A stretch of DNA of 64,000 bases, taken from positions 31,062,001 to 31,126,000 of the forward strand of contig OX597826.1 in the NCBI GenBank assembly GCA_951406725.2, read 5' to 3'. Position 1 is the stretch's first letter; each line of letters begins with the position of its first letter. Source of the DNA: Octopus vulgaris. Lineage: Eukaryota. The notes under the pieces are model-generated. The model saw nothing but the letters and a program-made list of their open reading frames with translations, did no database searches and was not told the DNA's origin. Shown here piece after piece: positions 42,041-43,547 of the stretch. A program made the position numbers and the translations under genes.

Positions 42041-42827
42041 ACTTTATAGAAAAGGTTAATTTTTATCCTCATAGCCTTTTTTTATGTTTCCACTCTCTTG
42101 TTTTTGTTACCAACTTTGACCCACCATATATCCAAAATTTTAGTTTGGAAGTTATGGGAGCAACTACCTTCGAAGACCCATATTGTTGCTGAATGCTCGA
42201 AATGAGGAGTAGAAAGACAGCCGACAACTGATGAAGGATCGTTCTTTGTGTTACTTTCCTGTTTTCCATTTTTTTATCTCTCGTTGTTTGCGTATTCAAC
42301 TCGTTTGTTTTCCTACTTCGAATTGTTTACTGTTGGTGAAGTCCTGTACCAATATATGCATATACATACATATATATATATATATATATATATATATATA
42401 TATATATATATATATGTGTGTGTGTGTGTGTGTGTGTGTGTGTGTGTGTGTGTGTGTGTGTGTGTGTGTGTGTGTGTGTGTGTGTATGTATGTATATATA
42501 TGTATGTATGTATGTATATATATATATATATATGTATATATATGCATGTATATATATATATATATATATATATATATATATATATATATATATATATATA
42601 TATATATATATATATATATATATATATATATATATATATATATACTATTTAATTAAGGGTTCAGCAACGATTTGCCTCACCACACACCGAATTTAGAAAT
42701 AGCAGTCAAAAAGTTTTGGCTATTCTTTCTACTTAAAAGGGAGATCCCAGTAAAACCAAAGCACTTAAAAAACAAACGACGCAGGTAAAAGAGAAAGAAA
42801 TGACGAAAATCATTCTATATTAAGTTA

Positions 42828-42918
42828 CCTACGGACGCACGTTTCGGAATTAAGTCATTGTAGAGCATAAAAAATAAATAATTATGTCTTACCTGGCTAT
42901 TTTCCTCATCAGCGTAGG
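42828..42918 (-). ncRNA. Intact type-I hammerhead ribozyme
   Basis: CCUACG-CUGAUGA-GGAA[~50-nt hairpin]UUCC-GAAAC-GUGC-GUC^CGUAGG; 6-bp stem I; predicted cleavage between 42834 and 42833. Confidence 0.9.
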
Positions 42919-43427
42919 ATTCTTCAATTATAAATAATTGCGTCTCAATTATTAATAATTGTGTATTAAATTTGAAGGCACTAGAAGACATCACCTCAAC
43001 TCATGGTATCAGAGCGAACGTAAGTCCTGCCAGTACCGCCAAATTTAAAGGGTGAAAGAAAGTAAGTCACCTCCCCCTGTCCACCAGCGTGTTGCCAAAA
43101 TATGATGCTACAGTTTTTTACTGGGAGGAAATACAATTATCAATAATAATAAAGGGTGAAATTAATTAATTTAGAAATAATCATTAATTTCACCAAGTAG
43201 AGTTCGGCATGTAAAAGACCCATTCAAGGAAGGTTTAAGTAATACTAAGTAATTAAGGGTTCAGCAACGATTTGCCTCACCACACACCGAATTTAGAAAT
43301 AGCAGTCAAAAAGTTTTGGCTATTCTTTCTACTTAAAAGGGAGATCCCAGTAAAACCAAAGCACTTAAAAAACAAACAACGCAGGTAAAAGAGAAAGAAA
43401 TGACGAAAATCATTCTATATTAAGTTA

Positions 43428-43518
43428 CCTGCGGACGCACGTTTCGTAATTAAGTCATTGTAGAGCATAAAAAATAAATAATTATGTCTTACCTGACTAT
43501 TTTCCTCCTCAGCGTAGG
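43428..43518 (-). ncRNA. Type-I hammerhead ribozyme, second copy
   Basis: CCUACG-CUGAGGA-GGAA...UUAC-GAAAC-GUGC-GUC^CGCAGG; one mismatch each in stems I and II. Confidence 0.82.
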
Positions 43519-43547
43519 ATTCTTCAATTATAAATAATTGCGTCTCA

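Follow-up and report, generated by a model that had tools for sequence, protein, structure and literature searches.

A dispersed family of non-coding hammerhead units in the Octopus vulgaris genome, likely inserted by Penelope-type enzymes

The window analyzed here is a 64,000-nt stretch of the Octopus vulgaris genome (GenBank assembly GCA_951406725.2, contig OX597826.1, positions 31,062,001 to 31,126,000 of the forward strand). Our favored reading, in which we place reasonable though not high confidence, is that it holds a 5'-truncated copy, 1.51 units long, from a dispersed family of non-coding elements whose 590-600-nt unit contains one type-I hammerhead, and that this copy was likely inserted by a Penelope-like reverse transcriptase (RT)-endonuclease that was probably copying a monomeric RNA circle. 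The 590-600-nt units are a new family of animal retrozymes, a known kind of element. The copy in the window is an ordinary and partly decayed one; its 5' hammerhead is damaged, and it is unlikely to be a source element (Table 1).

Table 1. Features of the retrozyme insertion and its surroundings (positions within the window).
Feature	Positions	Strand	Description
Whole insertion	42642..43547	-	1.51 units of the 600-nt retrozyme unit; single arm, 5'-truncated
One unit, cut site to cut site (predicted monomer RNA)	42834..43433	-	35% GC, strongly self-paired
3' type-I hammerhead, intact	42828..42918	-	Stem I CCUACG/CGUAGG, CUGAUGA, 60-nt stem II, GAAA, palindromic stem III; predicted cut 42834/42833
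5' type-I hammerhead, damaged	43428..43518	-	Mismatches at 43431 (stem I) and 43447 (stem II); predicted cut 43434/43433
3' end at fixed site 1	42642..42660	-	Unit position about 190-200; putative RT start
Fixed site 2	43131..43145	-	Unit position about 289-303; second putative start in other copies, internal here
(TA)n/(TG)n microsatellite	42352..42641	.	Target and tail; common to an unrelated older repeat ending on its other side
TGGTATCAGAGC, PBS-like word	43004..43015	+	In a hairpin, on the opposite strand to the unit

The initial annotation described the locus as an LTR-like element, in which two direct repeats of about 305 bp flank a unique core. The repeats are present (42642-42947 and 43242-43547, 306 bp each, spaced by 600 bp, with seven differences between them). 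The core is the remainder of a repeated unit and is not unique, the 30 best genomic matches spanning 1.0-1.8 units, and the LTR-like framing gives way to one of 1.51 turns of a 600-nt tandem unit whose copies start at many positions. Counted from the cut site, the insertion runs through unit positions 487-600, then 1-600, and ends at position 192 of the next turn. A duplication introduced by assembly is unlikely because of the seven differences between the repeats and the recurrence of the same layout at many loci. The longest ATG frame in the 600-nt unit is 58 aa, and no RT plus GIY-YIG reading frame was found in it. The unit folds at -164.7 kcal/mol (z -6.67), with none of 100 shuffled sequences as good; self-pairing of the retrozyme units against shuffles gave z values of -6.67 and -4.75.

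Several other features surround the insertion. The TA run is met from the opposite side by an unrelated repeat (42110-42350, + strand) that carries a CTGATGA half core and whose best other copies, among 3,408 candidates, are 86-88% identical. Two broken transposase-like remnants lie at 41480-42020 (+ strand) and 43548-43900 (- strand), the latter adjoining the 5' end of the retrozyme; both appear to resemble Tc1/mariner C-termini. Elsewhere in the window there is an 84-bp tandem repeat of 3.4 copies (33436-33720).

On the minus strand, CUGANGA and GAAA cores with GUC sites are found at both predicted cuts, 43434/43433 and 42834/42833, as had been claimed, together with a stem II of about 60 nt and a 3' end that enters (TA)n. 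The quasi-palindromic stem III is likewise borne out: ACGUGCGU is self-complementary, with a predicted duplex of -8.8 kcal/mol over 8 bp, and dimer-type animal hammerheads have a self-complementary stem III (PMC4209133). The stem I pairing CCUACG/CGUAGG, previously ascribed to both repeats, holds for the 3' copy only; in the 5' copy an A-C mismatch interrupts stem I, and G faces A at the second pair in stem II. These mismatches, at 43431 and 43447, are private to the window locus among 40 loci compared. Relative to the best fold, adopting the hammerhead costs 9.3 kcal/mol in the 5' copy and 2.2 kcal/mol in the 3' copy, and the hammerhead alone is no better than shuffled sequences (z -0.55 and -1.25). 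A scan with the Rfam Hammerhead_1 model did return a match, to the 5' copy only and below threshold (17.7 bits, E 1.6; gathering cutoff 34). The case for a genuine hammerhead therefore rests on the core motif and on covariation within the family. The suggestion that a transcript of this locus would efficiently release a monomer is not supported, as the 5' hammerhead is damaged. The word GGUAAG in stem II resembles a splice donor; inspection showed no useful frame arising from it, and the contigs contain no intron join.

Our initial search of the 2.8-Gb genome gave 2,706 candidates, of which 40 were scored, and the 30 best loci were compared. The element is multi-copy, with more than 1,000 matches: the commoner form of the 3' half of the hammerhead has at least 1,085 exact matches (control 0), the form found at the window locus has 24 (control 0), and an anchor sequence downstream has 1,206 (control 33). 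For covariation we aligned 53 of 94 distinct motif matches, after excluding three non-family matches and near-duplicates. These 53 distinct copies contain the type-I hammerhead in tandem units, with its core and stems I-III, and 98.3% of stem cells pair, compared with 15-36% in slid controls. Two pairs in stem II alternate between G-C and A-U, with both sides changed in 25/53 and 12/53 hammerheads respectively; because the 53 hammerheads are related, these compensatory counts stand for a small number of events. Stem I hardly varies across the alignment and is thus little informative. As judged from the compensatory changes in stem II and the conserved palindrome, the hammerhead fold is under selection.

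The family contains a younger subfamily with a 589-nt unit, about 80% identical, with the core CCGAUGA (U4C) and arrays that reach 10.4 units. The U4C change reduces hammerhead activity in vitro, yet is tolerated in a viroid (PMC3088659). A more distant relative, with a 560-nt unit and 61% identity, combines similar end motifs with a short stem II, which indicates that the long stem II is younger than the end motifs; examples at L262:900-1620 (- strand) and L261:5380-5890 adjoin Hydra-like Penelope elements (described below). Other hammerheads came to light as well. A back-to-back pair at L093:120-570 belongs to another long-stem-II family with the palindrome ACGATCGT, and a hammerhead at L271:898 (+ strand) has an 85-nt stem II and the palindrome CAGCTG. 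The window itself contains three minimal hammerheads whose core, CCGACGA, carries U4C (25078-25104, 26626-26652 and 26956-26982, - strand), two of which fall within a 330-bp direct repeat (26508-27138) that includes a flanking microsatellite and is possibly a local duplication. Loci L014 and L016, 27 kb apart on G000:C4, present one insertion and its flanks twice, as a segmental or an assembly duplicate.

To describe the insertion footprint we used an unbiased sample comprising all 66 loci with the first 100 downstream anchors (contig C1), with 91 arms. Ends were classed as site 1 at unit positions 170-212 and site 2 at 275-320. Site 1 accounts for 53/91 arm ends and site 2 for 33/91, leaving 5/91 elsewhere, and 82 of the 86 site-ended arms enter TA-type repeats. 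Forty of the 66 loci are one-armed, as is the window copy, whose arm terminates at site 1; the other 26 have two inverted arms. Among these 26, 21 combine site 1 with site 2, one has site 1 twice, none has site 2 twice, and four have an off-site end, so that each arm has its own site in 21/22 on-site two-armed loci (p 2e-6). There is no excess of 5' ends at the cut site in this sample (2/91 arms compared with about 0.8 expected under a uniform distribution, 5-nt window).

This footprint has a close counterpart. In AT-rich DNA the anole Penelope protein cleaves and extends both strands, with two internal RNA start sites that define the genomic tail (PMC11167929), and insertions of Penelope-like elements (PLEs) have an inverted truncated arm and a tail on one side (PMC8557442). 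Since the ends, the TA targets and the arms all match, mobilization in trans by a Penelope-like RT, as put forward in the initial annotation, appears likely, and by analogy the family has likely been pasted into TA repeats by Penelope-type enzymes.

The genome contains young, intact PLEs of two kinds that could supply such an enzyme. The first has a 781-aa frame with RT and GIY-YIG domains, a Cys-rich linker and TA ends, is of Neptune type by description, and carries, by inspection, a minimal hammerhead with U3-A8. One young element of this kind (L118:768-4468, G000:C6:133343000-133351000) shows the U3-A8 core pair and has an upstream 479-aa frame that overlaps the 781-aa RT-endonuclease frame in a different phase. 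The second kind has frames of 778-908 aa without the CCHH motif, which we call Hydra-like following the description in PMC8557442; its hammerheads have a stem II of 54-59 nt, some with U4C, and there are two TA-ended sites about 50 and 205 nt past the cut. We were led to these elements by a hammerhead in the window (36946-37070, + strand) that has a 59-nt stem II and runs into (TA)n; it proved to belong to the 3' end of a coding, Hydra-like Penelope family with 2,948 candidates, in which one long copy has a 360-aa RT frame. A Pfam search with the Hydra-like proteins gave no match, and their 11 database relatives are all without names.

A Penelope element sharing the repeat, as the initial annotation had envisaged, was not found among seven Neptune-type loci or the coding elements among 81 further loci (L199-L279), when the unit was compared with their terminal repeats, or pseudo-LTRs (pLTRs), with the best 150 of 6,136 and the best 113 of 13,696 candidates scored. 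The Neptune-type 781-aa element was rejected as a pLTR donor for its lack of homology to the unit, and the matches to the unit within L199-L279 are separate retrozyme relatives. At one locus (G000:C1 near 30.97 Mb) a 1.32-unit retrozyme arm abuts, exactly at its cut site and without intervening TA, the terminal piece of a Hydra-like element, whose inverted tail arm closes the insertion. This chimera, which has a 3-nt microhomology and is the one example among the screened retrozyme loci, can be read as one event in which the template was switched. Other candidate chimeras were discarded: L261 and L262 are nested insertions of retrozyme relatives touching Hydra-like elements, and L007, L173 and L174 merely have a TA run in common. 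Weak evidence thus far makes Hydra-like elements the likeliest enzyme donors.

The footprint also gives insight into the template. Both starts lie 190-300 nt past the cut site, yet the arms mostly extend far beyond it. A cut, linear monomer therefore cannot be the usual template, so the template was circular or uncut, or the enzyme jumped between templates. Sequence variants were followed in 33 loci of the 589-nt subfamily that were picked for length. Variants fixed in all covering units of a locus numbered 230 calls (208 shared between loci, 22 private), while those present in only some units numbered 22 (8 shared, 14 private). The 22 private fixed variants are spread over 14 loci, and 15/22 are present in both arms. 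Fixation in all units and in both arms is what is expected from a single-unit template and indicates a single-unit bottleneck; this pattern suggests copying from one monomer, which was likely a circle. Circular templates for more-than-unit PLE copying have been proposed earlier (PMC4209133). We also considered A-to-I editing as a source of variants, and rejected it. The private locus-fixed variants comprise 10/22 T>C and 5/22 A>G changes, and thus show no sense-strand excess of A>G; changes of the A>G and T>C kinds outnumber those of the C>T and G>A kinds in the 589-nt subfamily (p 0.0006), and the 600-nt subfamily does not show this bias (p 0.3). Contigs from eight sequencing runs, whose status as RNA is a guess, contain the family sequence and head-to-tail joins, which genomic DNA has as well.

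The most serious alternative retains a Penelope-type enzyme and dispenses with the circle: uncut, linear read-through RNA of tandem copies would be copied with template jumps, the hammerhead being slow or dispensable, and long arrays would change later by unequal exchange. Several observations favor it. The anole element can do without hammerhead cutting and, in vitro, mainly copies uncut RNA (PMC11167929); few 5' ends in our sample fall at the cut site. The arrays are not uniform either. L121 and L123 have a three-unit periodicity, L144 and L178 have unit-specific variants in common, and singleton variants are shared with other loci above the prediction from recurrence (78 compared with 56, and 29 compared with 17), from which it follows that some templates were multimers or that some arrays were altered after insertion. 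Moreover, the youngest and longest arrays carry U4C, and arms of at least two units make up 5/18 of U4C arms compared with 0/38 of those with the canonical core (p 0.002, with age, array collapse and kinship as confounding factors), which is the outcome expected if long precursors persist after weak cutting. Against this, lineage variants are with few exceptions common to all units of a locus and to its two inverted arms, which requires repeated passage through one unit, and the compensatory changes in stem II and the conserved palindrome show selection on the fold. We consider the linear template unlikely overall, although far from negligible, and put a monomer circle as the usual template at a little better than even.

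Alternatives without a Penelope-like enzyme fare worse. Truncation at the 5' end and inverted arms also arise by LINE twin priming, so an AP-endonuclease or other LINE targeting TA repeats might have mobilized the unit, and the failure to find a PLE with unit sequence at the seven Neptune-type and 81 other loci would fit this. Nevertheless, two internal starts, one per arm, with neither poly(A) nor a fixed RNA 3' end, are described as specific to PLEs (PMC11167929, PMC8557442), and the coding PLEs of the same genome have the two-site, TA-ended layout of the retrozyme; we regard a LINE as improbable. The layout of the window copy, with two 306-bp repeats around a 294-bp core, could also be taken for a non-autonomous LTR element (a TRIM or a plant-style LTR retrozyme) with a plus-strand primer-binding site, a role for which TGGTATCAGAGC, at 43004 and in 30/196 loci, would be the candidate. 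This word presumably resembles an LTR primer-binding site by coincidence: it lies in a hairpin, 57 bp off the repeat end, and the 589-nt subfamily lacks it. The length of the repeat differs by locus, copies are longer or shorter than the window layout, the ends are TA-tailed and 5'-truncated with inversions, and the hammerhead is of type I and on the other strand. The copies are circularly permuted, which refutes the LTR reading, and we give it next to no credence.

Under the favored reading of Penelope-type copying from a monomer circle, a tandem copy would be transcribed, and its hammerheads would dimerize by way of the palindromic stem III and excise RNA of unit length, to be closed into a circle by a host ligase. 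A Penelope-type enzyme would then nick both strands of a TA repeat, and copying would begin at internal RNA positions, from site 1 for one strand and, for the other, from site 2, which lies about 105 nt to the 3' side. Synthesis would continue beyond the cut site, complete more than one turn and end at variable places, leaving partial tandems and back-to-back arms. A bolder version, which we offer as possible but rather doubtful, is that a dimer of a Hydra-clade Penelope enzyme loads on one hammerhead-made RNA circle unrelated to its own element, recognizes its structure, and rolls round it from both nicked strands at the two fixed starts. The family would then be a viroid-like circle with a DNA phase, whose youngest lineage may have tuned its ribozyme down through U4C and yet makes the longest arrays.

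Both the return of retrozymes into DNA and the use of circular templates by Penelope-type enzymes are proposed, rather than shown, in the accessible text of PMC7229834, PMC8557442, PMC11167929, PMC4209133 and bioRxiv 10.64898/2026.07.22.740005. The insertion record of the octopus family is unusually clear, and the family offers a compact test system, with a 600-nt RNA, two mapped starts and young arrays with traceable variants, in a genome that also holds canonical and U4C versions of the ribozyme and intact candidate enzymes. Our literature searches on retrozymes of octopus or cephalopods and on twin priming with PLE hammerheads, which covered sources outside subscription journals and Repbase/Dfam, turned up no paper that describes this family or reports twin arms for retrozymes.

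Among known systems, plant LTR retrozymes (PMC4918200, as summarized in bioRxiv 10.64898/2026.07.22.740005) are alike in having a highly paired RNA on the 600-nt scale between two hammerheads; unlike the octopus element they have a type III hammerhead, true LTRs, a primer-binding site, a polypurine tract (PPT), a 4-bp target duplication and mobilization by Gypsy elements. Insertions of endonuclease-bearing (EN+) PLEs (PMC8557442, PMC11167929, PMC4209133) share with the octopus family partial tandems, an inverted 5'-truncated arm, a one-end tail produced by two internal RT starts, targets that are AT-rich or (TA)n, and a hammerhead with a palindromic stem III; the octopus unit differs in having no ORF, a tail of about 105 nt compared with 30-40 bp, and arrays of up to 10 units.

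Metazoan non-LTR retrozymes (Cervera and de la Pena 2020, PMC7229834; bioRxiv 10.64898/2026.07.22.740005) are the closest match. They too consist of tandem non-coding units with one type-I hammerhead each, have low GC (less than 50%; here 35%), strong self-pairing and a dimer-type stem III, and form head-to-tail dimers to multimers without LTRs, as seen here at 1.0-1.8 units in 30 loci and at up to 10.4 units in the 589-nt subfamily. A PLE origin of metazoan retrozymes has been argued by Li, Clavereau and Pollet (2026, bioRxiv 10.64898/2026.07.22.740005), who report consensus lengths of 51-972 bp and cutting by 1/9 dimers tested. The monomer is thus not long for an animal retrozyme, as the initial annotation had supposed, nor is the long stem II unusual, 54-59 nt being usual in the coding Hydra-like elements of this genome. 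The unit is about twice as long as those of coral, mussel and axolotl retrozymes and has a 60-nt stem II, and here the circle is deduced from variant patterns. A homologous pLTR is known for 24/57 Xenopus families (bioRxiv 10.64898/2026.07.22.740005), compared with none found for the octopus unit at the seven Neptune-type and 81 further loci. The octopus family has both two fixed starts and twin arms, neither of which appears in the accessible text of the metazoan retrozyme papers. In its sequence features, namely a type-I hammerhead in tandem, non-coding units with low GC and strong self-pairing, the element is a metazoan non-LTR retrozyme.
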